From Balanoglossus misakiensis (taxonomy: Eukaryota; Animalia; Hemichordata): a DNA stretch of 64,000 nucleotides. The notes under the pieces were generated by a model. It was given only the letters and a program-made list of their open reading frames with translations. It was not told the origin of the DNA and made no database searches. Location: positions 12,183,337 through 12,247,336 of the forward strand of contig CM082586.2 of NCBI GenBank assembly GCA_040954595.2, written 5' to 3'. This document shows positions 8,104 to 36,350 of this stretch, piece after piece. The position numbers and the translations under genes are program-made. Positions within the stretch are counted from its first letter, which is position 1. Every line of letters begins with the position of its first letter.

Positions 8104-8525
8104 GTGGGCCGCCGCAAGCAGAAACACCCCTGATGCAAACTTGCTACATTTTGCGTAAAATGTATCAAAAGTCAACGTGACGCATTACGCTTACAAACGA
8201 CTACGTACGTAAATTTAATTGCACTGCTTGTGATTTATTAGAGTCCTGGCTTTTGGGGGGCAGATGGAGCGCATATGGAGTCTTACACAATACCTCATTA
8301 ATTATGCACATACCTAATTCTAGGTGAACCAATAGAGCTAGGGTTCTGGTTTTTGTTGGACCTAGACTTGTATGGGGTCCGATTTTTTTGCCCAAATTTG
8401 GGGTGACCTCAAGTGACCTTTGACCTACTTTCCCATATCTTGGTATCCACAGCTGATACAGCCTTGGCATTTGCTGGTTACCATGGGAACCGCTTGTGCC
8501 CCGCCAACGCTGCTTGCAGCTTTAA
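8104..8525 (+). repeat. Single-core copy of the interspersed repeat also found at 17548-19160
   Basis: 8295-8475 matches the ~240-bp core unit at 18095-19100; both end in cgctgcttgcag. Confidence 0.6.
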
Positions 8526-12294: not shown

Positions 12295-12599
12295 AGCCCC
12301 CAGAGCTGCCAAATTTCATGGATTTTCTTCCACAGTAAAACACTTCAAATATATTCCCTATCCTCTAAAATCCTCACCATTAAGCCATATTACTTGCATT
12401 TGCATCAGTTTGTCATCTCTTGGTGATGCATACCACGATAGCTGCGTACTGTTTGTATGGAGGCTGATTAAACCGTTTTAATACATAGCATTTTCAAATC
12501 GCTACATACAGCCATAATCGGGCATCAGTAAAGTGTTCACATATACCTCAGTAAAATAAAATTGTGAAAATAATGCAAAATGTGGCAGCTATAGAGGCT
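12295..12599. mobile_element. Kolobok-like MITE (TTAA target, AG..CT ends)
   Basis: ttaa|agcccccagagctgccaaattt ... aaatgtggcagctatagaggct|ttat. An inverted family copy lies at 28533-28871 and an isolated end at ~5810-5848. Confidence 0.75.
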
Positions 12600-12839: not shown

Positions 12840-14319
12840 TACGGCGCGCCAAGTGTTTCAAAATTATTTATCATTATTTTATAGAAAATTGATGTCTTTT
12901 AACAAAAAAATACGTAAAAACAGAAAAAACTGATTGGTGGTTTAAAAAACGAGTGTAAAAAGTAATCCATCGTGGAGTAAAAAAAACAACAACAACAACA
13001 ACAAAAAACTAACACACACAGAAGAAAATCTCACCTGTTGTCAAAAAAAACCCACCAAGCTTACCAAAAAAACGTCCACAAGGCAGTTGCAAAAAAAAAA
13101 AATCACTAATTTGTCACAAAAAAAACACGCGCACATTTTTCACGAAAAACGCACACTTCACAAAAAATACACACAAAGTATTAAAAAGAACACTCTTTGA
13201 AAAAAAAGAGAGACTACAACTTTTAAAAATGCACACCCCCAGAACAAACAACACAGGCAAACATAGAAAAAACACGAACATGTTAGCCATAAAAAACGGA
13301 GATATTTGTCACCGAAAAAAAACCCCGCACTCATGTCACCCAAAAACTAACGGGCCACTTTAAAAAACGCAGATGCACTGAGGTTGCAAAAATAAGCACA
13401 TTTTTAATCCCCCGAAAAAAAAAACAGGCAATTTGAAAAAAAAACACACAGCAATTTGCAAAAAAAAAAAAAAAAAAAAGGAACATTTGTCACCCCCCAA
13501 AAAACATGCAATTTGAAAAAAAAACGCAGAGCAATTTACCAAAAAAAAAAAATATAGGAACATTTGTCACCCAAAAAAACCAGGCAATTTGAAAAAAAAA
13601 ACGCAGAGCAATTTGCAAAAAAAAATATAGGAACATTTGTCACCCAAAAAAAAACAAGCAATTTAAAAAAAAAAAAAAACGCAGAGCAATTTGCAAAAAA
13701 AAAAAATATAGGAACATTTGTCACCCAAAAAAAAAAAACAGGCAATTTGAAAAAAAAACGCAGAGCAATTAGCAAAAAAAAGAAAATATAGGAACATTTG
13801 TCACCCCAAAAAACATGCAATTTGAAAAAAAAAACGCAGAGCAATTTGCAAAAAAAAAAATAATAGGAACATTTGTCACCCAAAAAACAGGCAATTTGAA
13901 AAAAAAAACACGATATAAAATTTGAAAAAAAAAATATATAGGCACATTTGTCTCCCAAAATATTCAGGCAGATCCAAGTTGTAAAAAATGGTATATTTGT
14001 CATCCAAAAAATAAAATAAGCGTGTTTAAAAAAACGAGCATTCAGTTGTAAAAATAAATAATAGTCTTTAACAACTTGAAAAAAAAAACGGACGCATTTG
14101 AAAGAATAGCGTATGCGCATGCGCCGAAAAAAAAAATGAGTGAGAAATCCTGGGGAATAAATGCGCATGCGCAAAAAAAAAAAAAGTGAACAATCCTGGC
14201 TGAAAAAAAAAAAGTGAGAGATTTCGGTAGAGGAGTCTGGGTAATATTTGAAAAAAAAAAAACGGAGTCTGAAAAAAAGTTGAATTGAAGAAGAGAAAAG
14301 AAAGGGGAAACGCACAAAC
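12840..14319 (+). repeat. Left TIR (~1480 bp) with internal A-rich tandem repeats
   Basis: Reverse complement of 31908-33521. Repeated unit ggaacatttgtcaccc-An-caggcaatttg-An-cgcagagcaatttgc-An at ~13480-13960. Confidence 0.95.
14114..14173. promoter_or_regulatory. Pair of NRF1/EWG/P3A2-type palindromic sites in the left TIR (putative promoter of the cargo gene)
   Basis: TGCGCATGCGCC (14114-14125) and TGCGCATGCGCA (14162-14173) match consensus YGCGCAYGCGCR (the first with one terminal mismatch). A donor-like aag|gtgtgt follows at 14401. Confidence 0.6.
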
Positions 14320-15246
14320 AACTGCTAGGTGTCGAGATACGTGGGAGTGAACTCCGAAGCATCTTTTGGGCATCATCGTTATCAATCGACATCCACAAAA
14401 GGTGTGTATCATCTGTATGTTATATTTAAGTTTATTTTAACCGTGGATAGCTGCAGTGCATGATAAGTCGTTATTTTGCATGGATTGCATCATGTTTAAA
14501 AAATCATGTTATCGAGTGAACTTTCTTATTCTACTATTTCCGAAGTATAAAAGTTCAGTTGTGTCTTTTCGCATCGTTTCGCATATAGTTAGCTCTGCGT
14601 GACAGGGCTGTGTGACGAAGATCGACGCACGTTTTGAGTTCGGAATCGGCCGTTTTTGGTAAGGAAACCATACCGCAACAAATCCGTTGAGTTTCGCCAG
14701 GTTTGGCTATGTAGCTTAGCAGGGCTGTGATTGGAGGCGTAGCCGTTAACAACACACAGCCCTGGTAGCTAAATTCCCACCGCTGGAGTGATGTAACAGC
14801 ACAGGGGACTCTCCCTCCGCGATTTTGTTTGTTTGTTTGTTGTTGTTGTTGTTGTTGTTGTTGATGATGATAATACCCTAACACTTACATGTCAACAAAC
14901 CATATTTATTAATAAAGAAATATGTATTTGTTTATTATGCCAAAAATCACCATCATCATCATCATCAACAACAACAACAACAAACAAACAGACAAAATTG
15001 CGGAGGGAGAGTCCCCTGTGGTAACAGGGCAATGTGTTGCTTTGCGGCTTGCTGCCAACCGCCAGCGGTTGATGATAGTTTACCAAGACAATTAACTTAC
15101 ATTCTTGAATTGTATGTAGTATTTCACATAGAGATGCATGGCATATTTTCATGTGTTACATTTTAACATACAGTTATTCCTCATTATGGTCTTTGTGAAA
15201 TAATGTTTCATATATTTTTCATATCTTCTTTCCAAAAGTCATCAGA

Positions 15247-18200
15247 ATGGATAATACACAAAGGTCAGAAATACAAAGAACATTGGACTCAATGGACACA
15301 CTTGAAGTAAGAACAGCCGTAAACAATTTATTTAGGGGAAGAAGGCAGCCAGCTCAAGTACAACAATTACACAACACACCACATAACACCAGCCGCGCAC
15401 AAAATCCTAGGGACACATCAAGAAAAACTGCTGTATTTCCTCGATCCACAGCTGTATATTTACCCAAATCAAGAATGTACCATATGAAACTGTGTGTCCT
15501 AAAATATGACGAAGCAGTCATGATTGACACAACAGGAACTGTACATAACTGTGATGGAGACTGGCTTTTCAAAGGTGACATTTGCTTAGAAAGTAAATGG
15601 AATGATATACAGGTGGAGCGAGAAATACAGAACATGATAAGCCTTGCATATCCAAACTATATGGAAAAATTCAAGTTTGTGGATGTTCCACGCAAGGGTT
15701 CAGTCCAGTTACGAATCGTTTCCCGCTCATTCAAATATACGGCAAAAGCAGTATGGGATACAAGGAGTTTGAATAAAACCATCTATGTCATGCTTGATTC
15801 AGAACATGACCACACCCAGGAAACTGCCAGCATTCAGCATTATCAGAGGTGTTCAAATGTTGTAGATACATATAACAGTACAGTGACTGCAGACGCGTCC
15901 CTCCAGTCCCCATCCATGGTACTTGATGAAGTCACCACTGAGATTGAAGGAAATACTACTACTTTGCAAAGCCATGATGATGAAAGATATGCATGCACTA
16001 CCGTTGTCCAACCTCTTCAAACAGAAAATGATACAACTATACAGCCTTTAAGTTTCACATCTAATCGGGCCATTGAAGACACTGTGCCATCTCCAACAAG
16101 TGAATCAATAAGATTAACAAGTACAATACATGATGATACAACAATGCAGCTAGTGCCTTTAAGTTTCCCAGACAGTGTATCCAATCAGGCGAGTGAAGAC
16201 AGGCCATCTCCATCAAGTGAACCAATGGGATTAACAAGTACAACTCATGACACCCTATGCAATGGACCTCAATCAACCACTGGACAGAGTCCAATTGGTA
16301 GACAACACCACCAAATGGAAAGTACTGCCAAGAGACATAAAGGAAATCCAAAGAATGTAAGTATCCTGCTCAATAAGTCTTCTCATGTTGTTTAGTTTCA
16401 ATAAGAGAGCTGTGCTCAGGCTGATGACGTGCTTGTGAGTGAGTGAGTGAGTATGTTTATGTTTGATCAACTGTACGCATCACAATTTTTTAATACAGCT
16501 GCTTCAATTCAAAATTTATGAAAGATAAAAATGAAAATATGGAAACTATTTCTTTGAATATTGTCCTGCCCCCCCCCCCCTGACAAATTCCTAGGGGGTG
16601 CTAACATGTCAACAGGTGAACCCCTTTGGTCGAATTGTGTTAACATACAAGTGACATTGACAAAAGTCACATAAAGACAATTAATGCCATGATTTTCTTA
16701 TTTGTAGGAGTGCACACTGAGAGACATGATTTGTACTGATGGTGCAGAGCAGCTTGTAGATTACGGTAATGTGAACCTAAGTACTTATTCAGCAAAGACA
16801 CATTCATCCTTGTCAGAAAAAGTAAACATGCATGATCAAGGGAGATGTAGTCTGATGTAGATTGAGTCATGACTTTTGAATATAAAAAAATGACGTTCTT
16901 GCCCTCAGTAAAATTTACTTGAATTTGCAAGATAAGATCAGTTGGTGCACATGCATATATTGTTCAAATGTCCATTATGTACTAGAATCCAAATAGTAGT
17001 TTAGCTGTGCCGATCTTCAATAAAATAAAACCTAAGGTTTGATAGCACTCTGAGATCCCCTAATTTCTTATGTTCCAGCATAAATCAGTTGATCTCAGTG
17101 TGATCAAATCCTTAATACTTACCAGATTATGACCCCTCAACTTCTGACCTTTAGCCATTCTGCCATTACATGTAATTTCAATCATGCACTCTTGGCTTGT
17201 TAGAAATGTCTGTGCCCTTCTTTCCAAGAAAACAAGAAACTTTAAAAGGATGGTGACGGGGATATTGCCTTGTTGATAATTGAAACAAATTACTAGCTTC
17301 CACTATATGTAGTGTGTTTCTCACAACAGGTCTACCAAACCCTGGCAATTACTGTGCAGTCAATGCGGTGATACACCTTCTTGCATGCATAAAACCAATT
17401 ATGGAATGTTTATCTGAGGTGGTTTCTGGTGGTCCATGTATTGAAGCTGTCATTGAGGTATGTCAAACTTTTCATTTCAAGTTATGCAAATTGTCTTTAG
17501 GTATTGCAGACTAAATGGGCATTACGATGACCTACTGAGTCATATGATTAGGTCCCATTGGTATAGGCATATATACCATGGGACCTTATGGGATCGGTTG
17601 CGTCTGTATGTATGTATGGATGGATGGATGGATGGATGTATGGATGTATGTCTGTATGTCCGTCCACATCAAAAACTTGAAAACCGCTGCGCGTATCACC
17701 TCAATATTTGGTGTGTAGGTGCAGGCTGGGCTGTAGATGGGAGTTTGTCCAAACGAAGTTGCCAGGCCCAAAAATATGCAAAATAGCTGGAAAAATGTGA
17801 AATTTATCAAAACTCTGAAAGTCAACAACTACTTGTCAGATTGCTTTAAAAATTGGTATGCATGTACCACATGTCAACTTCACATCGACCTGTAAGTGTT
17901 AAGTTAATATAATGGATGTTTTATTTTTTATGAATTTTTTAGTCTTTTTATTAAATTTATACCTTTACTTATATCTCTATGGTTAAGCTATGTCCACGTC
18001 TTATTGTGGAATTCTGGTCTGTGCAATAGTCCTGTAATGTGACTGTCTATTGGTCAGTGAGCACAATGGGGCCAAAATAAAAGGCAAAATTTTGGGCTCA
18101 CCTGTAACACCTGCTTAACATATTAATTATGTGCTTGCCTAATTCCGGGCTAACTAATAGGGCTAGAGGTTTCGTTCTTGTGGGACATGGACCAGTATAG

Positions 18201-21200
18201 GGTCAAAATTTCTTGCCAAAATTTTGGGTGACCTCAGGTGACCTTTGACCTACTTTCCTATATCTCGGCATCCAGAGCAGGTACAGACTTGGCGTTTGGA
18301 GGGTTGGGACTAAAATTGAAAAGCCAACATATTGGTCACCTGTGACACCTGCATATCTCATTTATTATGTGCATACCTAATTCCAGGCTAACCAATAGGG
18401 CTATAGGTTTGGTTTTTGTTGAACATGGACCAGTATAAGATCAAAATTTATTGCCCAAATTTTGCATGACCTCAGGTGACCTTTGACCTACTGTATCATA
18501 TCTTGGCATCCAGAGCAGGTACAGACTTGGCGTTTGGAAGGTTGGGACTAAAATTGAAAAGCCAAAATTGGGGGTCACCTGTGACACCTGCATATCTCAT
18601 GAATTATGTGCATACCTAATTCCAGGCTAACCAATAGGGATATAGGTTTGGTTTTTGTTGAACATAGACCAGTATAAGGTCAAAATTTATTGCCCAAATT
18701 TTGCATGACCTCAGGTGACCTTTGACCTACTTTATCATATCTTGGCATCCAGAGAAGGTACAGACTTGGCATTTGGAAGGTTGGGACTAAAATTGAAAAG
18801 CCAAAATTTGGGGTCACCTGTGACACCTGCATATCTCATTAATTATGTGCATACCTAATTCCAGGCTAACCAATAGGGCTATAGGTTTGGTTTTTGTTGA
18901 ACATGGACCAGTATATTTGTCACCTGTGACACCTGCATATCACATTAATTATGTGCATACCTAATTCCAGGCTAACCAATAGCGCTATAGGTTTGGTTTT
19001 TGTTGAACCTGGACCAGTATAGGGTCAAAATTTCTTGCCCAAATTTTGCATAACCTCAGGTGACCTTTGACCTTCTTTTCCATATCTTGGCATCCAGAGC
19101 AGATATGCTTATTGCTATGTTGCTATGTGCTATGTTGGCTTGGGCCCGCTGCTTGCAGATCTGCTTGCAATGTCACCTGTAATTTTTATTCTGGTGTGTC
19201 ACTGTTTCCACATAATCCTCAAATGGGACCACAGTGTCCTTGACGCTATTTTTTTATAATTGTTTTCGCAATTTTCATGATAATTCATTATTTGTTATTA
19301 TTCTTGACGTTATGTTTCTGTCAGTACATGCAGTGAATTGGTTTGTATTCATTCAAGGTAATATGTCACCTTTGACAGGTATTTTGATGTATTATACTTT
19401 TTTTCATATAATTACAATTACAAAATTAACTTAACAAATACTCTCCATTACAAAAGATTAAAGCTTATGACTGTATTCTTTAAAAAATAGTTATTGTGTG
19501 CAGTCATAGCTTCTCACTTCTAATTTTACTGAAGTGAGCAAAGTTGTCTCTCACAGCATATAACAATTTACCTTCTTCTATGCCATAGGATGGGTTATAT
19601 ACTTGATATCAGTATATGGTAGTGTCAACATTATTAAGCCAAAAATATAATATCAGGAATTTTCATAAAACACTTTTTCATCTATCATTCCCATTTAAAT
19701 CTAGATGATATCTTTGATTGGTGAAGAGGATTGTTTGGCAGAATACGAAACAGCAGTAAGCCATTTCCTCAAGTGTATGCCACGGGATATGGCTGGCGGT
19801 GGGTATGACCCTGCAGAAGTGTTGGACGAAACCTTGAAAGTGTTGTGTACAGAAAATGAGGTACAGTATTTTCAATCTTGTCTGTGTTAATTGATTTTAG
19901 GTCAGTCTTACATTTGTTCTGATAATGTAACTGTGTCAAGTTTGTCGGACATGAACCAGCAAAAATTTATTTAAAAAGTTTTTGGTTACCTTAGGTGACC
20001 TTGACCATCTTTCTGATATCTCATTATCTGGCTCAGATACAGCTTTGGAATTCCGTGGGAACCACTTGGGCCCCACAAACCATGCCTGTAGATTTAGATT
20101 TTAGGTCCAATTTGATTTATATGTACATATATACCATGGGACCTTATGGGATTGGTTGCGTCTGTATGTATGTATGTATGTATGTATGGATGAATGTATG
20201 TCTGTCCACATCAAAAACTTGAAAACCGCTGCGTGTATCACCTTGATATTTGGTGTGCAGATGCAGGCTGGGCTGAAATGGGAGTTTGTTCAAATGAAAA
20301 ATTTGAATTTGGTCAAAACTCAGTGACTCAAGAACTACTGGTCAGATTGCTTTGCAAAGTGTGTGTATTTACTTTATTGAGTTCTTTGTAATTAGGCAGG
20401 AACCCCCTCCTGATATTTATACACACAGCAAATTCCTGCATGATAACATAACTGGCTAAGTTTTAAAGATGCCAGCTGTTCTATTTAGTGTATGTACAGT
20501 ACATATGCCATTGGCAGCTTATGGGTCAGTCAGTGTTTGCTCTTTGATCTCTCTCTTTCTCTATGTGTGTGTGTGTCTGTCTGTCTGTCTGTATATGGCC
20601 ATGTACTCTGGTGTAGACATTTTCTGGTGTAATCCCTCAATGGGACCACCGTGTCCTTGACGCGATTTTTTTTCTTCCAATTGATAGATTTTTTCATTCG
20701 TTTCATGTTTTATAGCATTTAGCACAGGTAATCCAGACAACTTTGGCAGGTACACGGAGACGGATCTGGATTTACGAGGATGAGGAATTTGAAGACGACA
20801 GTTATCGTCATATCCTTTGTTTGACCCTGCTGTTATAAGGGATTTAAGCTGTAACTGTTTGCTCTATTTTCAGTATTTTTGATCAGTGAATCAATTGCAG
20901 TTTTGTGGTCCTCTAACAACAGCATGCCATTTCTAGTACTGCACTAATAAACATAGGCTGTATGTGTGTAACGTAACATTGACCATTGTTATTGTTGACA
21001 AATAAATTCTTGTCCAGACTTTAATTACATTTTTGAATGTGGGGCATTTCTTCATACTATAAGGATTTGAACAAAAAACTGCAGGAGATAAACAAACCAA
21101 AATTACCTGTACTGAAAACATCGAAAAGTTACAGCTAATTTCCTGACTTAAGTATATATTTTTGTAACAAACTAGATTCTTCATGTTGACGAGACCAGTG

Positions 21201-24200
21201 TTCAAGTGCATATATATCCATAAATACTGTTGTACACAAACTCAGAAACTATGAATGGTTGTATGGTGATTTTATCACGCATATATAAAGTAAAAAGGTT
21301 GCTGCCCTGTGGTAGTAACTAACAGATGGTGAGATAATGTGTTTTCAAGAAGTAGGGGTGGGCATTAATTTGAAACTAAATTGGGCAGACCTTTTCAGGG
21401 TGTGATCATTTTATAGGGAAAAATATAACAAATGATACTGACATCATTGATTTTGCTGATGATTGTCAATTTAATATTCAGTTTTCCTATACATTACCTT
21501 GATACACCCCTGGTACGTTCTTCAACTAAACCCAGGATCATCAATTGACAGTATGCTAAATCATTTTCTCACAGAGAGAATGATTTATTGTTGGCGAGAC
21601 ATTCCTTCTAATGTGAAAGTCCAAATCAAAGACAGCATAGACGGAGCACCTGAACCTTCTGAACGTATGTTTTTTTATTTATTTGATTATACATGTACAC
21701 TTAGTTACTTTGCTATATGTTTCACTGTTACAAATATAGAACTGAAAATATAGTTAATTTTCATAATTTCTCTTTGAGGGGTCACTGTATAAATATTGAC
21801 ATTGTCACGGTATCAATTTACCCCCAGAGATACTACAGAAGTAGAAACCCTTAAATGAAAAAGTGATTGTCATTTACTCTACTTTAGGGAGAAGGGAGGA
21901 AAAGGAACATCATTTTGTTTGTTTTCTTCATTATAGATGACAGCGTAAAGCATGTTGACTTCTGGGTAACAGAACCCAATTTAATATGTTTGGGGATTCA
22001 CAGAAATGATGGTTATGGCAATAAGGTAGGTTTCATACTTTCTGTAGACTGATCATAAAAATGTTAATTATCAAGAGAAAGTGAAGTATAATTCATTGCA
22101 CCACAACATGTGACTTTTGCTGTAGTTGCTATAGGGCATAAGCTCCAGGTCATGAATGATTTGACAACTGAGATGAGACACAAGGATGCTGATCAATGCA
22201 CATACAGTAGCTGGGGCCAGTGCAGTATTGTCTTCTACATTTTTCTAAATACAGTCAACCAAAAGAATAAGTAGCTTCTTTTATCCTAGGTAGAGCAAAT
22301 GATTTAGGATAAATTTAAATTGTATACTATTAGTCTTTGAAAAGTTTGATGCTTTTGTGATATTACAGGACAATAGGAGTATAAAAATTCCGAGGTCGAT
22401 GACTGCTGAAGCACTGTTGTCTCCACAAGATTTCCCTGCATTCTGGTCACCCCCTGATATGGAAGTCACTGCCATAGTTGTGCATTCTGAAATAAGGGGC
22501 CATATAATGTTGTTAGTAAAGAAGGAGGCAGATACATGGTAAATATAGTCTGTTTGCTATGTTCTTCTTTGTCATCATTTCGTGTGTAAAGCTGTTAAAT
22601 ACTGAAAAGAATGAATAATCAATAACAGATCAGTTTTAGTGAAATTTAGTCTGTGAAGCCTCTTAATTGATGGTGCTCATGAGAACATGTATGTAATTGA
22701 CTGCAGAAAAGTGATAATTGATATAATTTTACAATTTCTTTCTTTGACAAATTACAATTAAAGATAAAGTTTGAGTCTCTATGCATGTTATATTAATGTG
22801 TTAAAACTTATCAAATTCCCTGCTATTGTTAACACATCTCATTTGTTTTTGTCTGTTCAGGGTCATGTATGATGATGACCATGTAACTGAATTTATCATG
22901 ACTTCTGCCATTCTGAAGTATCTACAAGGAGGCAATCAACAAGACAGTGTCAATATCCTTTTTCTCTTGAAACCAGAACAGACGCACGTTTCTTGTTACT
23001 TCATGTAACATGTTACAAAAAACTGTTGATTTTATAGTGGATAAAGTGATCAGTACACAATAATTTTTTGATGTATTTCACAAGTGTCTCAGTGCAGTCC
23101 ATTTTAGAAATTGATACAAGCTCTGCAGTTAATGTCTGTTTGTAGGTGATCACTATTACACAGTCCTTGTGTAAACATTAAACTACCGTACACTTTGAAA
23201 ATAAATAGAATATCAGTACTTTCAAAGAAAACTTTAAAGGCTGTAAAAGTGATGAACATGTAGTCATTCTAAAATGGAAAATAGAGTTTTGTTTGTCTTC
23301 CTTAATTACTCACTAATAGCTGTGTACTCAAAGGCCGAAATGTTCAGTCCTTACCCTTCAAAGCTGAGTGATGCTGTGAGGATATCTGCTAAAGAAAGGT
23401 ATTTTCCTGGTGACAAAACATCCAAACAAAAGTTTTAGTTGTATGCAAAAGGACAGAACATAACATCTTTCATTTTTTTGCACATTCTATGTAATCAGGC
23501 AATATGTGTTTACTGTATCAAATATTCTCATTCGACATTGTCTAGCATTCTAATATGTTACCACAGATCTGTATGTGTGAAGACTTTTCATGATATGTCC
23601 AATGTTTTTCTTCATTCTGGCAAGAGGTAAAGGTTATTGTCGTAATCAAAGCCTCATAATGTCACTGAGTGTGTACATGTACTATTGTACCACTTTTTTC
23701 TTTTATTTTCCCTGCAGACTTCAGGATTCTGTTGACTTGAGACAAATAAGTTGTGGATTAGGTAAATATTTATCATATGATAACAAACCATTTTTGTCCT
23801 TGCTGTTGAAAATGGAGGGATAAATGGCTTGTTTCTCATGGAAAAATGATAATATGTGACTTCTATATTTGATGTTGTTAATTTAGAAGATTTCCCTTCT
23901 GTACTGCTTAGGGACAGAGTTGATATGACAGGACGTGTTTTTTTTTCCTTTTAAAAGAGTTGAATAGAGAATTGGTCAGAAGACGAGTTGGGAGAAGACT
24001 AAAATCTGTTGTTGGGATGGAGGATATTAAGAAGAAAGTAGAAAAGCTTGCCATCTGCGCAATAAACAACAAAGCCCGGAGTACAATTAAGAAACAAGAA
24101 GAGGAGCCCCTAAATTTATTATTTTATGGGCCACCAGGCACAGGCAAAACTATGTTTGCTAGGTTGCTGGCAGGTATGTTTCTTTTTGTGTCCATTCAAT

Positions 24201-26468
24201 CTGTTACAATGTATAGAACTCATTAAACTTTAAAGCTGTAAATTTGTTTTCAATATTAAAGCTTCAGTATTTCTCGTTTTCGCATAAATTTTGTTTGAAA
24301 CGGCATCTTCAATTTCTAAAAGTACATGATAATTGATTCTGAATCTAACAGTTATCATGCCCAGCTCTGTTCATAAACACATACAATTTACAATATAACG
24401 AGTGAAGAATGACTTTCTGTCCGGACAGAAAGTCAGGCTCTGTGGACACACGTGACTACTGCGCATGCGCACTCAAATGTGAATCTATGCGGAAGAGGTT
24501 TGGTCGCCCCAAATCTAGCGCCTCAGCGAAGAAATGCGCACTAATTCGGCGAAATTCTGGGAAGATAACTATATGGGAGAAATCAGTCGATGGAACCAGA
24601 TCAAATCTGAAAATGGTCTGACATCAAATATCAAAGTGGCACGTTTGCTGATCGAGATGTACAACATTTCCGTTGTAAACAAACCCGCGCATCATTTCAA
24701 GTGTTACGGGCAATATTTACAGCTTGCATATAGCTACAGTTGCCCAAACCTTTCTTATATCTTCATTATGTAGTATTCCATGATGAATGTACAGGAAAAA
24801 CGGGCATTTTTCGATGATGAAAAATGGATACACACGAGAAATACTGGGGCTTTAACCTATAATTCTCAAATGTTTCAAAAAACACAATGCAAAAGTCAAC
24901 ACCCTTCGTAATTTAATGGTACAGTTTTCATTTCACAGAGTACCACTTTCACAGAACTGTGAGAAAATTAGTTTTACCTTCATTTTTATTACTTAATATT
25001 TTGTTCCAGGTGCAATATAAAGGATGATACCATAATAGGAAATCAAGTTTTATTCAATGTATAAATAGAGAGTTTAGGGAGTATTCCTAGTTTCTTTCCA
25101 CTTTGCATAGGCTGTACATGGTTATCTTATACCATAGGATTGTGTGTAAAAATGCAAGAAACCACCGATAAAATATTGTCATTTTCTTGAAATTGTCAGA
25201 AATAATTCAGAATGAGAATCAAAATCAATATCTGCAAAAATAAAATTTATGTCAGACCAGCTTGAGTCTTGGAGTCAGCTCATCTAAAAACTCCTACCAT
25301 GAAGATCTAAAGTGGGGAGAAGGGATGACTCAGCAATTTCCTTTTTTTGGGGGGTCATAAAATTGTCGCTAAAATTACCATTGCTTCTCCAATAATTTCC
25401 ATGTTTGTCTTTGAATCCACACGCACAATTGTCATATAACTAGATGAAATGTACACAGTGAAGTGGTGAGGGGGGGGGGGGGTATTTCCATATCATGTAA
25501 GTCAAAACCTAGTCTGGTAATTTCTATATTCTAGATACAGCAATCGGTGCAGTAAATTCAAAAGCATTTTTAGTCATGGTTCTACTTTGTGCTTTGCCAT
25601 TTCAGGATGCTTATATGATGTTGGTATATTAAAGGAAGAGAAAGTTGTTGAAGTACAGAGAGATAATGTTGTTGCTCAGTATCTGGGAGAATCAGAGAAG
25701 AAAATGAAGAAAAAGATCGAAGAGGCAGCTGGTGGATTGCTGTTTATTGATGAGGCATACTCACTATATAAAGGCAAATCTACGAAGGACTTTGGAGTTG
25801 ACATAATAAACACCCTTATGCACTATCTCACTGGTGACTGTATGAGAGATACCCCAGTATTTGTTCTTGCAGGATATAAGATGGAAATGGAGAAGTTGCT
25901 GTCAGCTAATGAGGGTCTCTTAAGAAGGTTCAGGGAACCATGGATCTTCCAGCCATACACATCTGAAGATCTGAAACAAATAGTGTGCAACAAGTTGCTA
26001 ATGCAGGGGTTCCAGTTTGAAAGTGGTACTGATGGTGAGATCCTGGCCCTGATAGAGGCTGTACCGCCTGGATTGCGTGTGAAGTTAAATGCAGGACTTT
26101 GTGGTCGCATTATCGACTACATGAAGGATAGCATCGATGATCGGGTTTGTAATCCATCCAACACGACAGAACTGTTACTTGTAAAGCTAGAAGACATACA
26201 CAGTGTCAAAGAACAGCTGAGTGGGCAGTGGGTTGATGATCCCAAAACACACACAACCATTGGGATACAGACTGATCATGTGGAACTGACAGATAGTACT
26301 ACAGAGATGATATCTATGAAATGCGTGAATGTCAATACACAGACAACTGGCCATGTGGAAACTGCACATACACATGCACAGACTGTGATGTTGGGTTCTC
26401 TGAACAAAGAGACGCAGACTGACCGACTGGCGAAACTGATGATCAAGGGACACAGACATATCATGTAA
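15247..26468 (+). CDS. Multi-exon transposon cargo gene: N-terminal domain + S/T-rich linker + USP-type cysteine protease + CbbX/SpoVK-family AAA+ ATPase + TQT tail (~1,090 aa)
   Basis: Exons 15247-16356, 16708-16765, 17330-17457, 19705-19860, (20400-20454 candidate), 21482-21664, 21937-22025, 22369-22538, 22861-~22994, 23320-23398, 23718-23761, 23958-24173 and 25606-26468. All are phase-compatible AG/GT except two uncertain donors (20454, ~22994). Motifs: Cys box GLPNPGNYCAVNAVIHLL; His box AIVVHSEIRGH...WVMYDDDHV; Walker A GPPGTGKT; AQYLGES; Walker B LLFIDEAY; VLAGY; NEGLLRRF. Confidence 0.8.
17548..19160 (+). mobile_element. Helentron/HINE-like non-autonomous element in a cargo-gene intron
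   Basis: The 5' ttaggtccca...tgggacc hairpin is followed by a (GTAT/GGAT)n microsatellite and ~4.5 tandem ~240-bp core units (18095-19100). A related 5' end lies at 20101-20360 and an inverted copy ends at 54343. Confidence 0.6.
24260..24851. mobile_element. Kolobok-like MITE in the intron splitting the AAA domain
   Basis: ttaa|agcttcagtatttctcgt ... acgagaaatactggggct|ttaa. Confidence 0.8.
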
Positions 26469-26544
26469 AACTGAGGTCAACAATGGGACAGAGACTAGTT
26501 TGACTTTCTATTATGTCTCACCAGACAGGTACAATTATCAAGAG

Positions 26545-27415
26545 CAATCTGATTAAAATTAGATGTAGTGTTGGGCGCCATATTTACTTTTGCTGATTCT
26601 TGGCTGTTCTGTTAAAAAGAGACGCCCACACTACATCTAAACCTATGCCATAGAAGATCTCAATCAGAGCGGTAGTCTCGGTTACCCAGACGCCTTTGCT
26701 CTTCCGATGCTCTCCAGAAAAGGGTCTGGGGAAATACTATTGAAAGCTTTGTAAAACAAAATGGCCGATGTCAGGATTTTGATCATCGCCTGCTTGGCTG
26801 AGCTGTCAGTATGACCTTGGTCACTGATTCTCGACAATGTGTGATTATTTGTCATATCTTCATATCAAGAGACCGGTACTTGTTGGTTGATGCGAAAGGC
26901 AAAAGGCGTCCTCTGTTAGCATTGTTGGAGAAATTATACGAAATATCTTTAGTAGACGATTGTCGAAACTATTGCAGTGACCCGGGTCATACTGACAGCT
27001 CAGCCAATCAGGCGATGATCAAAATCCTGACATCGGCCATTTTGTTTTACAAAGCTTTCAATAGTATTTCCCCAGACCCTTTTCTGGAGAGCATCGGAAG
27101 AGCAAAGGCGTCTGGGTAACCGAGACTATCAGAGCGGTTGTTTAGAAAACTGGAGGTGTGGAAAAACAAACAAACTTGAACAATAGAAGTTAGTTTCCAG
27201 CGCGTGGCCAGTTCCGAAGTGTTAGGAAAGCCGCTCTGTGATTGGTCGAATGGATCCATTTGCCAAAACTAGATGTTCTATGGCATAGGTTCAGAATGAT
27301 GTAGTGTGGCACGTACACCAAGAACAGCCACGGCAGAGAACAGAACAGCCAAGTCAAAGACAGAGAACAGAACAGCCAAAGACAATGCCAAACTTATCTG
27401 ATTTTAACCAGATTG
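26545..27415. mobile_element. MITE with 9-bp TSD (MULE-like) in the cargo-gene 3' region
   Basis: TIR caatctgattaaaattagat / atctgattttaaccagattg; flanks tatcaagag and catcaagag. Confidence 0.7.
26673..27128. mobile_element. Nested foldback MITE with TAG..CTA ends and 9-bp TSD (AcademH-like)
   Basis: ~154-bp near-perfect TIRs starting tagtctcggttacccagacgcc; exact TSD tcagagcgg at 26664-26672 and 27129-27137. Confidence 0.88.
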
Positions 27416-28532
27416 CATCAAGAGCAGAGAGGTGGTGAACAATTATCCCTTTCACCTCTCTGGTGCCGTCCAAATCCATTGTTCTCTATGGTAAGGTTGG
27501 ACCTCTAGAGGGAACTGGGGGTGAAAGGGTTAAGGTCATATTGTAATTCACTTACAAGCATTTAAATATTCTTATATGAAAATGAGTATTATTCTTATAT
27601 GCAAAAATAGCTCTATACTATTATAGCTCCTATCACAGCCGTTTTAGTGATCTTTTTCACTCGTTTTTTTGTTTCAAAGCTGTTTTATTATTCCTTAAAT
27701 CATGCTAGAAATAGGTGATCATTTTAATGTGGATGTAATTTTGTTGATTAAAGCACCACATGGTTCTGACTCAGAAAAAGGTTTTTCTTTGGTTACTTGA
27801 ATAGCTGTAACTTTTGACGTTTTTTTTTAAATTATTTAGCTTACCAATGCAACATTGACGTGTATACAGAAGCATTATTATTATAAATTGCATTCAACTT
27901 GGGACACAAAAGCATTTATCAAAAATAACATCGGTCATTACACATGCACTGGCTATGTTGACAACCAGAACACGGCCATATGTAGTAGAACAAGAATCTG
28001 GTAATACACAGAAGCAGAATACGGATAAAACAGTAAAATGTTACTACTAATGTTGCTTTAAAATGGCATAAAGTACTGACCTGTGGTAGGGGAAAAAATT
28101 GGCATTTTCTGAAACCTTGGTGTAAATGGATTGATAAAGGCACTACTTGTACACACCAGTGGACTTTAGTATTTCCATTTATTGACAAAAATCTTCAAAC
28201 CAGGTCAAAATGTAGGTGTCAATCTAAACACTGTCCCTGTTATTTTTTTATGTACAAGAAAACAAAGTAACTGCTACCTATATGATTTTGTGGAATACCA
28301 AGTCTGACATCAATAAATGTTTACAAGTTTTTTCTATGGTGTATTGAGCCATTAATAAAGTGTGTTTTTTTTTTTGCAATGATGTCTTGTTGCTGTAATC
28401 AGAGCACATTCTTCAGTTCAGCATTGCCAGTTAAAAAGATACATTAAAATGTCAATGAATAATAACAATGTCGCAAACATTTTCATTTCTTCTTATCTCT
28501 TTGATAAATGGCCAAAGTACATTACATGTTAA

Positions 28533-28871
28533 AGCCTCTGGAGCTGCCACTTTTGCATTATTTTCATGAATTAATTTAAATTGGTCCATCAAAATAAGCT
28601 TGCTGTTAGGTATAAACAAACATCTTATCCATGCCTGATCATGGCTGTATATAGCGATCTGAAAACGCCATGTATGAAAACGGTGCCGCACCGATTTAAT
28701 CAGCTTCCATACAAACAGTACGAGGCTATATTTGTATATGTCGCCAAGAGATGACAAACTGATGCAAATGCAAGTAATATGGCTTAATGGTGAGGATTTT
28801 AGAGGATAGGGAATATATTTGAAGTATTTTACTGTGGAAAAAATATGCAAAATTTGGCAGCTATAGGGGCT
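28533..28871. mobile_element. Kolobok-like MITE, same family as 12295-12599 (inverted)
   Basis: ttaa|agcctctggagctgccac ... tggcagctataggggct|ttaa; the interior is the reverse complement of 12330-12425. Confidence 0.8.
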
Positions 28872-30549
28872 TTAAAGGTATACAGTCTCCGATGCAAATT
28901 AAGCCACATGTACCAGCATGGAAAGTGGAAATTTAGCCACTAATATCTCTTGTTTTCAGTAGGTAGCCATGTGAAAAGAAGTGTGCCACTTCATCATGGT
29001 TATCAAAAGATTTATACACACCCTTGTAACCATACATGGGTAACCGGTATGTGTAAATTGGAGGTGATTGTATTTCTTTATGGATATTAAAATGACATTT
29101 GTCTGATTAAGGAACATGCTCTAGTGTAAATATCAATACCCTTTTCATCACTTGCTGCTAATGGATCTATCCTTTCCTGTAGAGTCTGAAAACATTGCTC
29201 ATAATTTGACAATTCAAATGTTGGTGATAGCATTTCATTATTTGATTCTTCATCACTGTTGACAGTGATGTATTCTTCATCACTGTTGACAGTGATGTCA
29301 GTTTCCACTCCATAAGTGGCATAATCTATGTTCTCTGGATCTAACAGTTCTCTGATAGCAGTTTTATCAGAATTTTTGAATGCAGTAACACTTTGCAGCC
29401 ACAGCTGATTCGGACTCAAATTGTGTTCTGTTTGCAATCTATGTTCATTCCAGCCTTTCCTAAAAACTGTCAGTGAATAATTTATACGAGGAAGAAAAAC
29501 AAAATGAAGACACAGTATCTCTATAGGATTATCAGGATTTAAAAGACCCTGGCATTCCATCTGTAGAAAAACATCACGATAGTATTCCAAACAACATTTA
29601 AATGTATCTTGATGTAATCGTTCAATTCTTTGATTATAAATTGATGATCCAACAATGTGTGAACCTCTGTTGTCTCCACGGTGTGCCAGCATGAAAGCTG
29701 CAACCGTTGTATTTTCCATCCCATAATCAGATCTGACACGGGACGGAATGCCATATTCTTGCACTGCACCAAGGAAACCATCTAAAACAGTTGATGCCAT
29801 CTTGTTGTTGGCAGCAATGAGGTAGACAACTACTCTAGAATACCCATCTATTCCACCATGAACATATAGTCCCCATCTTTGTAATTTTTCCAGGCCATCT
29901 GCAAAAAATGAAATATGTATTAAGCCTTATGAAACTCTTGATAAATGTACACGTAGATCAATTCTATTGGCAAGGAGGACTATACATCACACACTTATTA
30001 ATTAAGTTCAATATTCAGAAAAGCAGCAATCCACATACATAATTATGGTAAATGTTTCACTAAGAAATAAAATCAACATGGAAAAACAGCATCATGGCAA
30101 TGATGCTTAAGCTAGCTTCAGATTTAGTTTGGCATTCAGTTTTGGTTTCGTGGGATGCAGGCCCACTTCATAAAACTGCATTTCCAGCTTCCTCACCCAA
30201 ATTAGTCTTAAGTATAAAAAGAATATGCTGAAAGACGAGTACACATGATCAATTGCTCAATGTATGACATGTACAACATTTTAGCACTTTAAAGTTATAT
30301 TTAGATGTGGAAAATTATTTTTTTTATCACATCAAATATGTACCTCAGAAGTGCATAATTGATTGGAATGTAAATTAAATATGAACACGGCCAAATGTGA
30401 TCAAAATATTTTTCATTCTAAATAGGGTTTCCTAAACTACAACTATACAAATCAGCTCTTGATGCACAATTACTCTCCGTTACTCGAAACCGAAGATGTA
30501 TCTGTATCAGACTGAGTCTAACTTAAGCATCTTTATGACAACTGTTCAA

Positions 30550-30844
30550 TATTGAGTATTATATTATACCAGTATATTGATGGTGTAAATCACGCTATTT
30601 GATTGGTCGAGACACGACACGTGACCATGGTATATTAGCCATATACCACAGTCATATATCTTAGTCAAAGAAAATGCCTTTTTAAAATGTTTTATGCAAA
30701 GTTTCAATATACTGGCATAATATAATAGCAATAAAACACCCCCAGCCATGGTATACCACGAGATTTTGACCAGTTCGTGCGTATATGTCGTGAACTGGTC
30801 AAAATCTCGTGGTATACCATGGCTGGGGGTGTTTTATTGCTTAA
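30550..30844 (-). mobile_element. Hairpin-bearing non-autonomous element (Crypton-like, tentative) in the transposase intron
   Basis: ~50-bp palindrome agcaataaaacacccccagccatggtataccacgagattttgaccagttc at one end; family copies at 60661-60975 and 62926-63248. Confidence 0.6.
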
Positions 30845-30934
30845 ATACAATAGTTCCATTTGAAAACATGCAGTGGTTTTAAGATTTCACTGACACGCAT
30901 ACACCTACATAGATAGATAAATACATAAATAGAT

Positions 30935-31065
30935 ACATGATACATACATATTTACATGCATGCATGCATGCATGCATGCATACATACATACATACATACA
31001 TACATACATACATACATACATACATACATACATACATACATACATTACATGCATGTACGTACATA
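30935..31065. repeat. (TACA)n/(TGCA)n microsatellite
   Basis: Direct inspection. Confidence 0.95.
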
Positions 31066-31907
31066 CTATCTATCATAATAACTTTGTGTAATGTAAACTC
31101 TTACCAATATGCCATAAACTTTGTGCTGCCGCCACATTGTACACACCATGCCTTTTACTTTTCATTCTCAAGAGTGGCCAACGCAGGGCTCGTTCAAAAG
31201 GTTCAATCCTCTGGAGACTTTCTCTTATTCGCTGTCTTTGAACGGAAACTTTCATAGATCTCAGAATACCTTCCACGATTCTTTCTCCGCAATGCTTAAA
31301 AGTCGATTCCTTGATTCTGCGTATGTGCATGTCAAGATCTGCATCACTAATGGGATTGTACTTATCTGTGAAATCATACCCTAATGATTTCAATCTTCTC
31401 CATAATGTTTGACGAGATATTTGGAGCATTTCTGAGATATCTTTCATTTTGAACCCGTATTCGATAAATAATTGTACCTTGTCATCAATATCATATGGTG
31501 GACGTCCAGGTTCACCAGTTCGAATAGTTTCAGTCTCAGATAGTCCACAGTTCACATCACGAGACGTATTAACATTCCCAATCGTAACTCAAGAGCGAGG
31601 ACTGTTTCCAGAGTTAGAGCTCCATATTTCCAAAACAGATTGCAACGCAATATGTACAGAGTTCAAGCAATCCAGTAACAAATGAATGTCCTGCACAGAA
31701 ACGGCCATTACATGGTGCTGCACCGCTTCTCTTATGTTCAGTGTGTAACGTATCATAGAGACAGTTCTCTCGACCATGTTACACACCACTCGCCGGTCAT
31801 TTAGACCAGACGGTAACCTGTTTCTGTGGTCTGGAACAAGTATCTTCACTTCCTTCACGAAGGAATCCCATAACGGCGCCATGTTTGCTTCTCTTCGACC
31901 CTTATCG

Positions 31908-33521
31908 GTTTGTGTGTTTCCCCTTTCTTTTCTCAACTTATTTTCAGACTCCGTTTTTTTTTTCAAATATTACCCAGACTCCTCTACCGAAATCTCTCAC
32001 TTTTTTTTTTTCAGCCAGGATTGTTCACTTTTTTTTTTGCGCATGCGCATTTATTCCCCAGGATTTCTCACTCAATTTTTTTTTCGGCGCATGCGCATAC
32101 GCTATTCTTTCAAATGCGTCCGGGGTTTTTTCAAGTTGTTAAAGACTATTATTTATTTTTACAACTGAATGTTCGTTTTTTTAAACACGCTTGTTTTATT
32201 TTTTGGATGACAAATATACCATTTTTTACAACTTGGATCTGATGGAATATTTTGGGTGACAAATGTGCCTATATAATTTTTCTTTTTCAAATTTTATATC
32301 GTGTTTTTTTTTCAAATTGCCCGTTTTTTGGGGGTGACAAGTGTTCCTATGTTTTTTTTTTTTTCAAATTGCCTGTTTTTTTTGGGGTGACAAATGTTCC
32401 TATATTTTTTTTTTTTGCAAATTGCTCTGCGTTTTTTTTTTAATTGCCTGGTTCTATTTTTTTTTTTTTGCAAATTGCTCTGCGTTTTTTTTTTTAAATT
32501 GCCTGTTTTTTTGGGTGACAAATGTTCCTATTATTTTTTTTTTGCAAATTGCTCTGCGTTTTTTTTTTAAATTGCCTGGTTCTATTTTTTTTTTTTTTTT
32601 TTTGCAAATTGCTCTGCGTTTTTTTTTTTAAATTGCCTGTTTTTTTGGGTGACAAATGTTCCTATTATTTTTTTTTTGCAAATTGCTCTGCGTTTTTTTT
32701 TTTTTAAATTGCCTGTTTTTTTGGGTGACAAATGTTCCTATTATTTTTTTTTGCAAATTGCTCTGCGTTTTTTTTTTAAATTGCCTGGTTCTATTTTTTT
32801 TTTTTTTTTGCAAATTGCTCTGCGTTTTTTTTTAATTGCCTGTTTTTTTGGGTGACAAATGTTCCTATTATTTTTTTTTGCAAATGCTGTGCGTTTTTTT
32901 TTTCAAATTGCCTGTGTTTTTTTTTCGGTGGATTAAAATGTGATTATTTTTGCAACCTCAGTGCATCTGCGTTTTTTTTTAAGTGGCCTGTTAGTTTTGG
33001 GGTGACATGAGTGCGGGTTTTTTCGGTGACAAATATCTCCGTTTTTTATGGCTAACATGTTCGTGTTTTTTCTACGTTTGCCTGTGTTGTTTGTTCTGGG
33101 GGTGTGCATTTTTTTCAAGTTGTAGTCTCTCTCTCTCTCTTTTTTTTTTACAAAGAGTTTTCTTTTTAATACTTTGTGTGTATTTTTTGTGGGGGTGAAG
33201 TGTGCGTTTTTCGTGAAAAATGTGCGCGTGTTTTTTTTGTGACAAATAAGTGATTTTTTTTGCAACTGCCTTGTGGACGTTTTTTTTTTGGTAAGCTTGG
33301 TGGGTTTTTTTTTGACAACAGGTGAGATTTTCTTCTGTGTGTGTTATTTTTGTTTTTTTTGTTTTTTTGTTTTTTTACTCCACGATGGATTACTTTTTAC
33401 CCTCGTTATTTTTTAAACCACCAATCAGTTTTTTGTATTTTTTTACGTATTTTTTTTGTTAAAAGACATCAATTTTCTATAAAATAATGATAAATAATTT
33501 TGAAACACTTGGCGCGCCGTA
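31908..33521 (-). repeat. Right TIR (~1614 bp)
   Basis: Mirror of the left TIR; longer because of extra internal repeat sub-units (32250-32930). Confidence 0.95.
32038..32097. promoter_or_regulatory. Mirror pair of NRF1-type sites in the right TIR (putative transposase promoter)
   Basis: TGCGCATGCGCA (32038-32049) and GGCGCATGCGCA (32086-32097), 155-215 bp upstream of the transposase ATG at 31882. Confidence 0.6.
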
Positions 33522-34696: not shown

Positions 34697-36350
34697 TGTA
34701 AATAATGTGTTGCCTGTAAGCCATGATGCATGATCTCCATGCCATTCAATTTATTAGCGAATTTACTGATTTACTACCCTCCCCCCGAAATACAAACAAA
34801 ACAAAACAATTATGAATATATGGCTTCTGCAAACACATTATTTAGCAAATTAAAATCTTATCTGATAAAGTCACTTGAAAAGTTGAAAGACCCTCTTAAA
34901 TTGAGGAAAAAGAGGAATGTTAAAATGTAAAATAACTGAAAACTGAATGTGTATAAAACTTCTTAAAAAGAAGTATATCATTGTAAATAATGTGTTGCCT
35001 GTAAGCCATGATGCATGATCTCCATGCCATTCAATTTATGAGCAAATTTACTGATTTACTACCCTCCCCCCGAAATACAAACATAACAATTATGAATATA
35101 TGGCTTCTGCAAACACATTATTTAGCAAATTAAAATCTTATCTGATAAAGTCACTTGAAAATGTGAAAGACCCTCTTAAATTAAGGAAAACAAAGAATGT
35201 TCAAATGTAAAATAACTGAAAACTAAATGTGTATAAAATAGAGAAAACTTCTTGAAAAGAAGTATATCATTGTAAATAATGTGTTGCCTGTAAGCCATGA
35301 TGCATGATCTCCATGCCATTCAATTTATGAGCAAATTTACTGATTTACTACCCTCCCCCCGAAATACAAACAAAATGGCTTCTGCAAACACATTATTTAG
35401 CAAATTAAAATCTTATCTGATAAAGTCACTTGAAAATGTGAAAGACCCTCTTAAATTAAAGGGAAAAAAAGAATTTTCAAATGTAAAATAACTGAAAACT
35501 AAATGTGTATAAAATAGAGAAAACTTCTTGAAAAGAAGTATATCATTGTAAATAATGTGTTGCCTGTAAGCCATGATGCATGATCTCCATGCCATTCAAT
35601 TTATGAGCAAATTTACTGATTTACTACCCTCCCCCCGAAATACAAACAAAATGGCTTCTGCAAACACATTATTTAGCAAATTAAAATCTTATCTGATAAA
35701 GTCACTTGAAAATGTGAAAGACCCTCTCAAATTGAGGAAAAAGAGGAATGTTAAAATGTAAAATAACTGAAAACTGAATGTGTATAAAACTTCTTAAACA
35801 GAAGTATATCATTGTAAATAATGTGTTGCCTGTAAGCCACGATGCATGATCTCCATGCCATTCAATTTTTTAGCGAATTTACTGCCCCCCCCCCCAAAAA
35901 AAAAATACAATCAAAACAAAACAATTATGAATACATGGCTTCTGCAAACACATTATTTATGTTCTTATAAAGGAAATTTTCATCAATAAAATCAAAGGAC
36001 TGCAAACACTCAGACGATGCATAAATACTTGGCAATGTCAAGCCAAAGCAAATTACCTCGTCTGATACAGCCATTGGAAAAAAGTTCATTAAAGACCCTC
36101 GAACATTGAGGAAAAAGGCTAAAGACGTGCGTTTAAATAACTCAAAACTGTGTATAAAATAAAGAAAACTCCACAATGTGAAGTTTTTTTATTGTCCACA
36201 AAGTTTAAATAATGTGTTGCCTGTAAGCCATGTTGCATAGGCTCAATGCTATTCAATTTAAGAGCAAATTCACCAATATATTCCCCCCCCCCTGCCAAAA
36301 AAAAAAACAATTATGCCTATATGGCTACTGCAAACACATTATTTATGTAT
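34697..36350 (+). repeat. Tandem repeat, ~265-290-bp unit, ~6 copies (outer copies diverged)
   Basis: aaataatgtgttgcctgtaagcca recurs near 34700, 34985, 35274, 35550, 35816 and 36207. Confidence 0.92.

Follow-up and report, generated by a model that had tools for sequence, protein, structure and literature searches.

The DNA transposons of the IS3EU/GingerRoot class have TA..TA termini (TAYGG..CCRTA) with terminal inverted repeats (TIRs), an integrase-type DDE core and a second gene on the opposite strand. Their target site duplications (TSDs) are GC-rich, 6 bp as a rule and at times 7–8 bp (PMC10045372, PMC12730594 and PMC6839031; these and the other papers are cited for their accessible sections). 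The cargo described in those sections comprises alpha-kinase, TET/JBP and host gene fragments, and they mention no ubiquitin-specific protease (USP), AAA ATPase or U12-type intron. Other mobile elements bring their own ubiquitin or ubiquitin-like (Ubl) protease, with OTU and Ulp1 on Ginger1, Mutator and Helitron and C19 on an IS5-like transposase of Trichomonas (PMC2836005), and UCH in Helitron2 (PMC11417382). Transposon-borne deubiquitinases and IS3EU cargo are already known from these sources. We have analyzed a 64-kb stretch of DNA (64,000 nucleotides, hereafter the window) from the hemichordate Balanoglossus misakiensis (contig CM082586.2, positions 12,183,337 to 12,247,336), containing a transposon that fits the IS3EU/GingerRoot class. 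The second gene of this transposon, here called the cargo gene, is predicted to encode a USP fused to a CbbX-type AAA+ ATPase, and on sequence two of its introns are U12-type AT-AC.

The window element shares the termini, the DDE core, the GC-rich TSD and the opposite-strand second gene of its class. Its TIRs are 1.4 kb long, compared with 100–150 bp in GingerRoot (PMC6839031). Like the elements with deconjugating proteases it carries its own candidate ubiquitin protease. In the accessible sections those proteases are fused to, or lie beside, the transposase or RepHel and have no reported AAA+ motor, whereas the window has a separate gene with a CbbX-type ATPase fusion. Physarum polycephalum also links DNA transposons with U12 introns, which are proposed to have been made by a DNA transposon (bioRxiv 2020.10.12.336362). 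There the intron is a transposon relic, whereas the window has ordinary AT-AC introns with classic branch points in the transposon's own gene. In the literature covered, which was partial and had Repbase reports and supplements outside it, we found no description of a USP–CbbX fusion, of an AAA+ remodeler in IS3EU or of a transposon whose own gene has U12 introns.

The transposon and its cargo gene

The element occupies 12840..33521 of the window (20,682 bp) and is complete, with the ends TACGG..CCGTA. A single such pair of ends is present in the window, against a chance expectation of 0.05 matches. The TIRs and the transposase are as follows.

Left TIR, 12840..14319, + strand: internal tandem subrepeats; identical to the right TIR in 1371/1415 aligned columns
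Right TIR, 31908..33521, − strand: completes a TIR pair of ~1.4 kb with 96.9% identity
Transposase exon 1, 31105..31882, − strand: helical N-terminus, helix-turn-helix (HTH), start of the DDE core; in-frame TGA at 31589-31591
Transposase exon 2, 29087..29898, − strand: integrase-type DDE core, Pfam rva_4 E = 8.8e-67

The flanking TSD is GC-rich and 7 bp long (GCCGCCC / GCCACCC, one mismatch), and there is no 6-bp match at the flanks. A 7-bp TSD was found in 5/77 GingerRoot elements (PMC6839031). The termini, TIRs, TSD and DDE core together fit an assignment to IS3EU/GingerRoot. The transposase has two exons and is arranged tail-to-tail with the cargo gene; its N-terminus is HTH-like and it has no HHCC. 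The Asp residues of its catalytic core are invariant across 36 sequences. The one in-frame TGA interrupts the transposase, and by sequence this copy is therefore non-autonomous and would need transposase in trans.

The cargo gene (15247-26468, + strand) has 13 exons in our spliced model, giving a stop-free frame of 1087 codons with ten GT-AG and two AT-AC introns. In order, the predicted protein has a beta-grasp-like N-terminal domain, a low-complexity linker, a USP (C19) domain and an AAA+ module of the CbbX/SpoVK/EccA clade. The exons, with amino acid (aa) positions, are listed below.

Exon 1, 15247..16356, + strand: aa 1-370; N-terminal helix, beta-grasp/PB1-like domain (aa ~72-188, low-confidence fold), Ser/Thr-rich linker
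Exon 2, 16708..16765, + strand: aa 371-390; ECTLRD aligns with EKTFQD of P0146, a Ptychodera flava homolog
Exon 3, 17330..17457, + strand: USP Cys box with Asn393 and Cys398
Exon 4, 19705..19860, + strand: USP
Exon 5, 20716..20809, + strand: USP
Exon 6, 21506..21664, + strand: USP
Exon 7, 21937..22025, + strand: USP
Exon 8, 22369..22538, + strand: USP His box with His643
Exon 9, 22861..22952, + strand: Asp659-661
Exon 10, 23314..23398, + strand: end of the USP and linker; tblastn of P0143, 69% identity, E = 3e-7
Exon 11, 23718..23761, + strand: linker helix
Exon 12, 23958..24173, + strand: N-terminal helices of the AAA module, Walker A GPPGTGKT (aa 786-793)
Exon 13, 25606..26468, + strand: pore loop Tyr826, Walker B DE 849-850, LAGY, Arg907/908, lid, Thr-rich tail, stop

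The spliced model is identical to the P. flava protein XP_070533303.1 (P0143) at 220/302 positions with one gap, and the alignment spans the USP–AAA junction. An earlier note on this DNA had proposed one transposon-borne gene joining the two domains, from 14 motifs that all lie where it placed them, in the right order on the + strand. The stop-free frame of 13 exons, together with homologs that hold both domains, bears out the single gene. Two details of the note do not hold. VNILFL is coding only as far as V, the remainder being read-through into a U12 5′ splice site at 22953; the true spliced sequence here is VIIAVYSK, where P. flava has VVIAIYSK. Nor is 22861 joined directly to 23958, as exons 10 and 11 lie between. 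That account had overlooked both U12 introns, two of the exons and the N-terminal domain that is shared with other IS3EU cargo.

Two introns are U12-type AT-AC by sequence

The two AT-AC introns are these.

Intron 5, 20810..21505, + strand: AT-AC, ATATCCTT at the 5′ end, branch-like TTCCTATAC (7/9), TAC at the 3′ end, phase 1 in the codon of His516
Intron 9, 22953..23313, + strand: AT-AC, ATATCCTT at the 5′ end, branch TTCCTTAAT (8/9), CAC at the 3′ end, phase 1 in the codon of Ile686

Intron 9 sits in the last strand of the USP. Exon 9 ends in A followed directly by ATATCCTTT, the acceptor reads TTCCTTAAT..CAC, and there is no suitable GT donor where P0143 demands one. Removal of the AT-AC intron gives a gap-free alignment to P0143 over the junction. 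A model with GT-AG introns throughout (1081 aa) is also open, but it uses two weak donors, skips exon 10, which is conserved, and opens a gap of 11 residues in the alignment to P0143, so the AT-AC model was preferred. The end of exon 5 was the other point at which the GT-AG model was weak. The 3′ end of intron 5 is less certain than that of intron 9, there being no close homolog against which to test it; the chosen end aligns gap-free to P0146.

The 5′ splice site and branch point consensus sequences were taken from bioRxiv 2020.10.12.336362. On both strands of the window RTATCCTT occurs at just two sites, both perfect, at 20810 and 22953, which are the ends of exons 5 and 9. About three would be expected by chance in 64 kb. 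The number of sites is thus uninformative, and only the placement counts. That two such sequences should lie 60 nt or less from two exon ends that the gene requires has a probability of ~1.5e-4. We searched for TTCCTTRAC within 45 nt of an in-phase AC 3′ end, and the other ten introns reached at most 6/9, compared with the 8/9 and 7/9 given above. On these sequence features introns 5 and 9 are U12-type AT-AC.

A second, more distant hemichordate family of the gene probably has intron 5 as a U12 intron too. The P. flava model P0149 of this family ends NMN-NILL where sister copies go on NMN-MSW, and the NILL end matches read-through of A followed by ATATCCTT. One U12 intron is therefore apparently common to a family that is only 32% identical in that domain. 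The U12 introns probably explain the fragmentary database models of the cargo gene. Across 222 kb of other IS3EU loci the U12 motifs were not enriched, with 6 on the cargo strand versus 7 on the other.

By the genomic sequence, retention of intron 9 leads to a stop 18 codons later, and so to a USP without the motor. A GT donor is present inside the intron at 23005 (22984-23012). Its use would give an in-frame splice to exon 11 with exon 10 skipped, a possible bypass by the major spliceosome.

The USP domain

The four USP boxes of the window protein are in order (N393, C398, H643, D659-661). Single exons all fall below the Pfam cut-off, the Cys-box exon by itself giving UCH at E = 0.076. The homologs score above the cut-off of 23.9 bits, with 51.9 for P0151 (E = 1e-13), 38.1 for P0145, 35.5 for P0146 and 25.9 for P0148. 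Atlas-model residues 290-590 of P0151 match UCH clusters with TM 0.72-0.78 over 258-275 residues, and residues 1-165 of P0143 with TM 0.70-0.75, both sides of each comparison being predicted models. The C19 fold proposed earlier is thus recovered by profile and by fold match in homologs of the window protein. The AlphaFold model of P0151 is poor over most of the USP (mean pLDDT 49.9). Fold searches with it gave only AAA proteins, which consequently say nothing on the USP. A sequence search of the Protein Data Bank (PDB) with P0146 gave 0 matches.

The earlier note was also right that the catalytic residues are intact in the window. Asn393, Cys398, His643 and Asp659/660 are kept in every hemichordate homolog that covers them, and the USP of the hemichordate copies may be an active deubiquitinase.

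The Atlas feature matches of the USP part are USPs of Nucleocytoviricota; the tool cautions that such matches are not evidence of transfer. A scan of viral contigs with P0121 for a giant-virus origin found no relative among 15 pattern matches.

The AAA+ module

By sequence and by structural modeling the AAA module is a member of the CbbX/SpoVK/EccA clade, in agreement with the earlier assignment. The last exon of the window matches EccA, SpoVK and CbbX models at E = 1.6e-31 to 7.6e-26, below the equivalog cut-offs. The scores of the window exon, P0121 and P0122 are 91-153 bits versus cut-offs of 423-467, which argues for a clade member and not an orthologue. In a PDB sequence search P0121 matched EccA1 (E = 1e-32) and CbbX (E = 6e-30). 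CbbX was also the top solved structure for the modeled AAA part (Foldseek E = 2e-12), and in VIA it gave Z 17.9 (rmsd 4.1, 177 aligned), with the next row at Z 11.4 and MuB at Z 10.4. The module does not belong with IstB and TnsC, as had also been proposed: the IstB profile reached only E = 0.021 (14.8 bits versus a cut-off of 24.1) on the Walker A exon, and 12.7 bits in P0121.

The closest known proteins by sequence and structure are CbbX (the red-type Rubisco activase, PDB 3syk), SpoVK and EccA1 (PDB 9lur). Walker A and B, the pore loop, the AGY sensor and the arginine finger all align, the pore loop and arginine finger being at the positions given for CbbX (PMC4580454). The cargo module is ~33-40% identical to these proteins, far below the equivalog cut-offs, and has no Rubisco or secretion context; unlike them it is fused to a USP in an animal transposon. 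All the AAA motifs are intact in the window, and no homolog that reaches Walker A, Walker B or the arginines has lost them.

Homologs and the fusion

Used as a query, the last exon matched 24 proteins of comparable length, with P. flava (79%) and Saccoglossus kowalevskii (62%) ranking first. With the USP half, HMMER found five matches among 1.84 billion representatives (E ≤ 0.001), and every one belongs to the cargo family: P0143 itself, two from P. flava, one from S. kowalevskii and one from Actinia tenebrosa. In a single model the P. flava protein P0151 (XP_070562339.1, 790 aa) combines the N-terminal domain, the full USP and an AAA module that extends as far as Walker B; its AAA match has E = 3e-12, and Asn, Cys, His and Asp are all present. 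P0143 covers the later half of the USP and continues into the AAA module; the exon at 23314-23398 was recognized from it. The USP–AAA junction is also spanned by P0145 and P0147. These four annotated hemichordate proteins are gene models, not measured transcripts; they join both domains, and two separate genes, the outcome that the earlier note had named as fatal to its claim, are ruled out by them.

Against P0151 the window protein shows 32% identity for the USP and 47% for the AAA module, with 33% for the N-terminal domain and 17% for the linker. In the close family the values are 68% for the USP and 80-88% for the AAA module. The P. flava homologs are spread over six contigs of different length, two of which carry the 99% identical P0146 and P0151; in contig placement they are as expected of a mobile family. 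Word searches for longer proteins added nothing. With the AAA exon the best 120 of 348 showed no UCH match in their Pfam annotation, the named ones being bacterial or algal multi-AAA proteins, and with P0143 1-195 there were 0 of 577 candidates; both runs missed P0151, so the method is insensitive here.

The N-terminal domain and other IS3EU loci

A pattern scan of metagenome contigs gave at least 120 loci, and among those listed 118 have the IS3EU core and 44 have at least 1.5 kb downstream. One of them, L086 (1-4476), carries a USP-like match (E = 2e-8, best reversed-ORF (open reading frame) control E = 5.9) and an AAA module (E = 4e-55), tail-to-tail with the transposase. That transposase is an intact IS3EU frame of 512 codons, the closest to that of the window among the 119 listed loci with a core match (46% identity). 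L086 has no visible introns in either gene, one frameshift near 750 and a degenerate His box. Carriage by a transposon, as suggested earlier, is supported by the 20,682-bp element of the window, and the same gene pair recurs in L086.

HECT ubiquitin ligases are found in 7/39 of the IS3EU loci scanned (105 ORFs). When 25,733 ORFs were searched with a profile of the N-terminal domain built from three sequences, four ORFs of IS3EU loci matched at E 0.002-0.31, and the reversed control reached 4.4 at best. After three iterations the profile matched 10 loci, the iterated E-values being inflated. The domain lies on the strand opposite to the transposase in 10/10 of these loci and downstream of the transposase in 9/10. 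L080 and L093 of this set carry HECT clearly, and L050 and L104 weakly. The loci with HECT share with the window the transposase family, the tail-to-tail layout and the beta-grasp-like N-terminal domain, but the chemistry is the opposite, the window cargo being predicted to combine an eraser with a motor in place of a writer. With the same N-terminal domain at the head of HECT cargo elsewhere in IS3EU, the second gene of these transposons seems to be built from a common head and an effector that can be exchanged. In the literature covered we found none that links IS3EU with HECT.

The L093 cargo (70-2751) combines the shared N-terminal domain with a CUE ubiquitin-binding domain and HECT. L102 contains a second transposase fragment.

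An exact-peptide scan of metagenomes with the transposase gave 0/89. In a pattern scan of genome contigs 1/39 loci was a true relative, the IS3EU-type transposase at L007 917-2168, on a 2.2-kb contig of a Phycisphaerales metagenome-assembled genome that is perhaps eukaryotic contamination.

Origin of the cargo gene and its introns

In an AAA tree of 40 domains selected from 440, the five cargo domains from hemichordates group as one clade (100/99), which L086 and P0001 join at 91/85. A single origin of all the cargo had p-AU 0.48; it is neither shown nor rejected, and we therefore claim no donor. P0001 is the nearest sampled relative of the hemichordate cargo ATPase, a protein of 1654 aa with five tandem CbbX-type AAA modules and EF-hands.

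Minor introns are reported to be mostly ancient and only very rarely gained (PMC10639083). The presence of two in one transposon gene would mean either that they were captured at the DNA level very long ago and retained through a long selfish history, or that a rare new gain took place. An old host USP gene captured as DNA would agree with that rarity and with the capture of host introns and exons at the DNA level by GingerRoot elements (PMC6839031). Gain inside the element is possible, as no close host USP was found and L086 lacks introns.

A proposed role and its alternatives

We tentatively favor a role on the transposase itself, and regard this as falling only a little short of probable. 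The cargo protein would dock on the transposase, remove its ubiquitin and remodel the transposase–DNA complex. The N-terminal domain may be the docking module, as it heads HECT cargo too and has a weak predicted placement on the transposase core. The USP would then remove ubiquitin from the transposase. CbbX threads Rubisco as a ring ATPase, and by analogy the AAA ATPase may form a ring and thread its substrate. ClpX takes apart the Mu transpososome; in a comparable manner the ring could remodel the transposase–DNA complex. As intron 9 retention ends the protein after the USP, minor-spliceosome efficiency would set the amount of full-length protein. The earlier note had suggested a coupled deubiquitinating and unfolding machine that could act on the transpososome or on silencing, and such an activity is likewise a prediction.

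Complex prediction, run without alignments, of cargo aa 1-189 with three transposase pieces gave a score of 0.58, compared with 0.01 for the best of three controls. The runs share at least 36% of contacts and the partner pLDDT is at least 55. The score mark was reached by 51/78 solved and 2/108 mismatched pairs. Scores of 0.60 or below came from 5/78 solved pairs and all 4 passing mismatches, so that the predicted contact gives weak support for binding. When the transposase catalytic core was swapped out the score fell to 0.00, which hints that the core is the contact site.

Several observations weigh against this reading. The USP–AAA pair was found in 1/44 of the listed IS3EU loci with at least 1.5 kb downstream, which is rare beside HECT, so the superfamily at large cannot depend on it. 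Neither of the two non-hemichordate relatives has kept all the catalytic residues: Asp replaces Cys in the A. tenebrosa proteins P0148 and P0153, and His is missing in L086. The Actinia models had no AAA domain in profile scans, and in the second hemichordate family His takes the place of the pore-loop Tyr. The beta-grasp/PB1-like fold of the N-terminal domain is a low-confidence assignment from a model with pLDDT 54.7 and pTM 0.52, whose top rows were PB1/Ubl with Z ≤ 4.6 (rmsd 4.4, 83 aligned). The intact cargo frame is weak evidence of selection, with 0.8-2.3 nonsense hits expected at 0.5-1.5% drift and P(0) = 0.1-0.5.

The substrates could instead be host chromatin or silencing proteins at the element, such as ubiquitinated histones and methylation adaptors, which the ring would strip in an anti-silencing role. 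Fungal IS3EU elements carry TET/JBP genes proposed to counter methylation silencing (PMC12730594), transposon-borne OTU, Ulp1, C19 and UCH domains are widespread (PMC2836005, PMC11417382), and the catalytic triad is intact in hemichordates. Yet neither a chromatin reader nor a domain for DNA binding appeared in profile scans of the cargo exons and homologs, and both the N-terminal domain common to IS3EU cargo and the weak complex prediction point to the transposase; we consider an anti-silencing factor unlikely. Alternatively the ATPase might do the work, with the USP mainly binding ubiquitin, as an adaptor through which ubiquitinated substrates reach the ring in the manner of p97 cofactors. 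The loss of Cys or His outside the hemichordates, set beside Walker motifs and arginines kept wherever covered, would suit this, as would the AAA module being more conserved than the USP (80-88% versus 68% to P. flava). But all four catalytic residues are kept in two hemichordate families whose USPs are 32% identical, which argues for selection on catalysis there, and this arrangement seems to us quite unlikely.

A cargo AAA beside a DDE transposase also brings to mind target capture, since MuB, TnsC and IstB-type ATPases are the known transposon AAA+ proteins; the module would coat or bend target DNA and recruit the transposase. The clade is the wrong one, however, as the IstB and MuB comparisons above indicate, and the pore loop and helices of the CbbX type are present, making this highly improbable. 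Lastly, a host USP captured with its introns could have been fused to an ATPase by chance and now be neutral or serve the host. DNA-level capture by GingerRoot, the antiquity of most U12 introns, and a copy with a broken transposase beside intact cargo are all in keeping with such a passenger. We nevertheless think it very unlikely, for the same pairing recurs in a distant organism (L086) and in two hemichordate families that are 32-47% identical, near-identical copies are dispersed, the N-terminal domain is common to IS3EU, and the five HMMER matches included no close host USP.

A wider form of the transposase-directed role is doubtful at present. IS3EU might carry a modular helper, a docking beta-grasp domain with a swappable ubiquitin effector, HECT mostly and here a USP with a CbbX-type unfoldase acting as a ClpX-like remodeler, and the minor introns might be kept to switch between USP-only and full-length protein.

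Other features of the window

Several repeats and smaller elements lie in or near the transposon. Just 3′ of the cargo stop is a 456-bp non-autonomous element (26673-27128) with 154-bp arms and TAG..CTA ends, which we take to be Academ-like termini. It has a perfect 9-bp TSD, TCAGAGCGG; Academ TSDs are 9-10 bp (PMC10045372). A small inverted-repeat element, CACAG..CTGTG with GTAACAG at both flanks, lies ~230 bp upstream of the cargo ATG (14800-15020). A repeat family of 238-bp subunits fills cargo introns 3 and 4 (17557-19250 and 20130-20670) and recurs outside the element at 8249-8510. A 152-bp repeat is found just outside the left TIR (12324-12475) and inside the element (28692-28843), the two copies being 91% complementary.

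To the left, 122-1777 contains a decayed LINE reverse transcriptase (RVT_1 E = 8e-18) with stops interrupting the frame. A frame of 125 aa at 5985-6362 has no Pfam match of note and an SDD..KKW motif, which presumably resembles those of Plavaka/ESTA-like CMC transposases. To the right of the element, 34697-50500 has several satellite arrays (units of ~280, 91, 277 and 229 bp) and long CAT/CAC microsatellites.

Implications

The element is a defined two-gene system in which point mutants could address how the eukaryotic DDE transpososome is disassembled after strand transfer and why so many transposons carry enzymes of the ubiquitin system. If the wider, modular form of the role holds, a cut-and-paste transposon of eukaryotes would encode a ClpX-like remodeler of its own transpososome.

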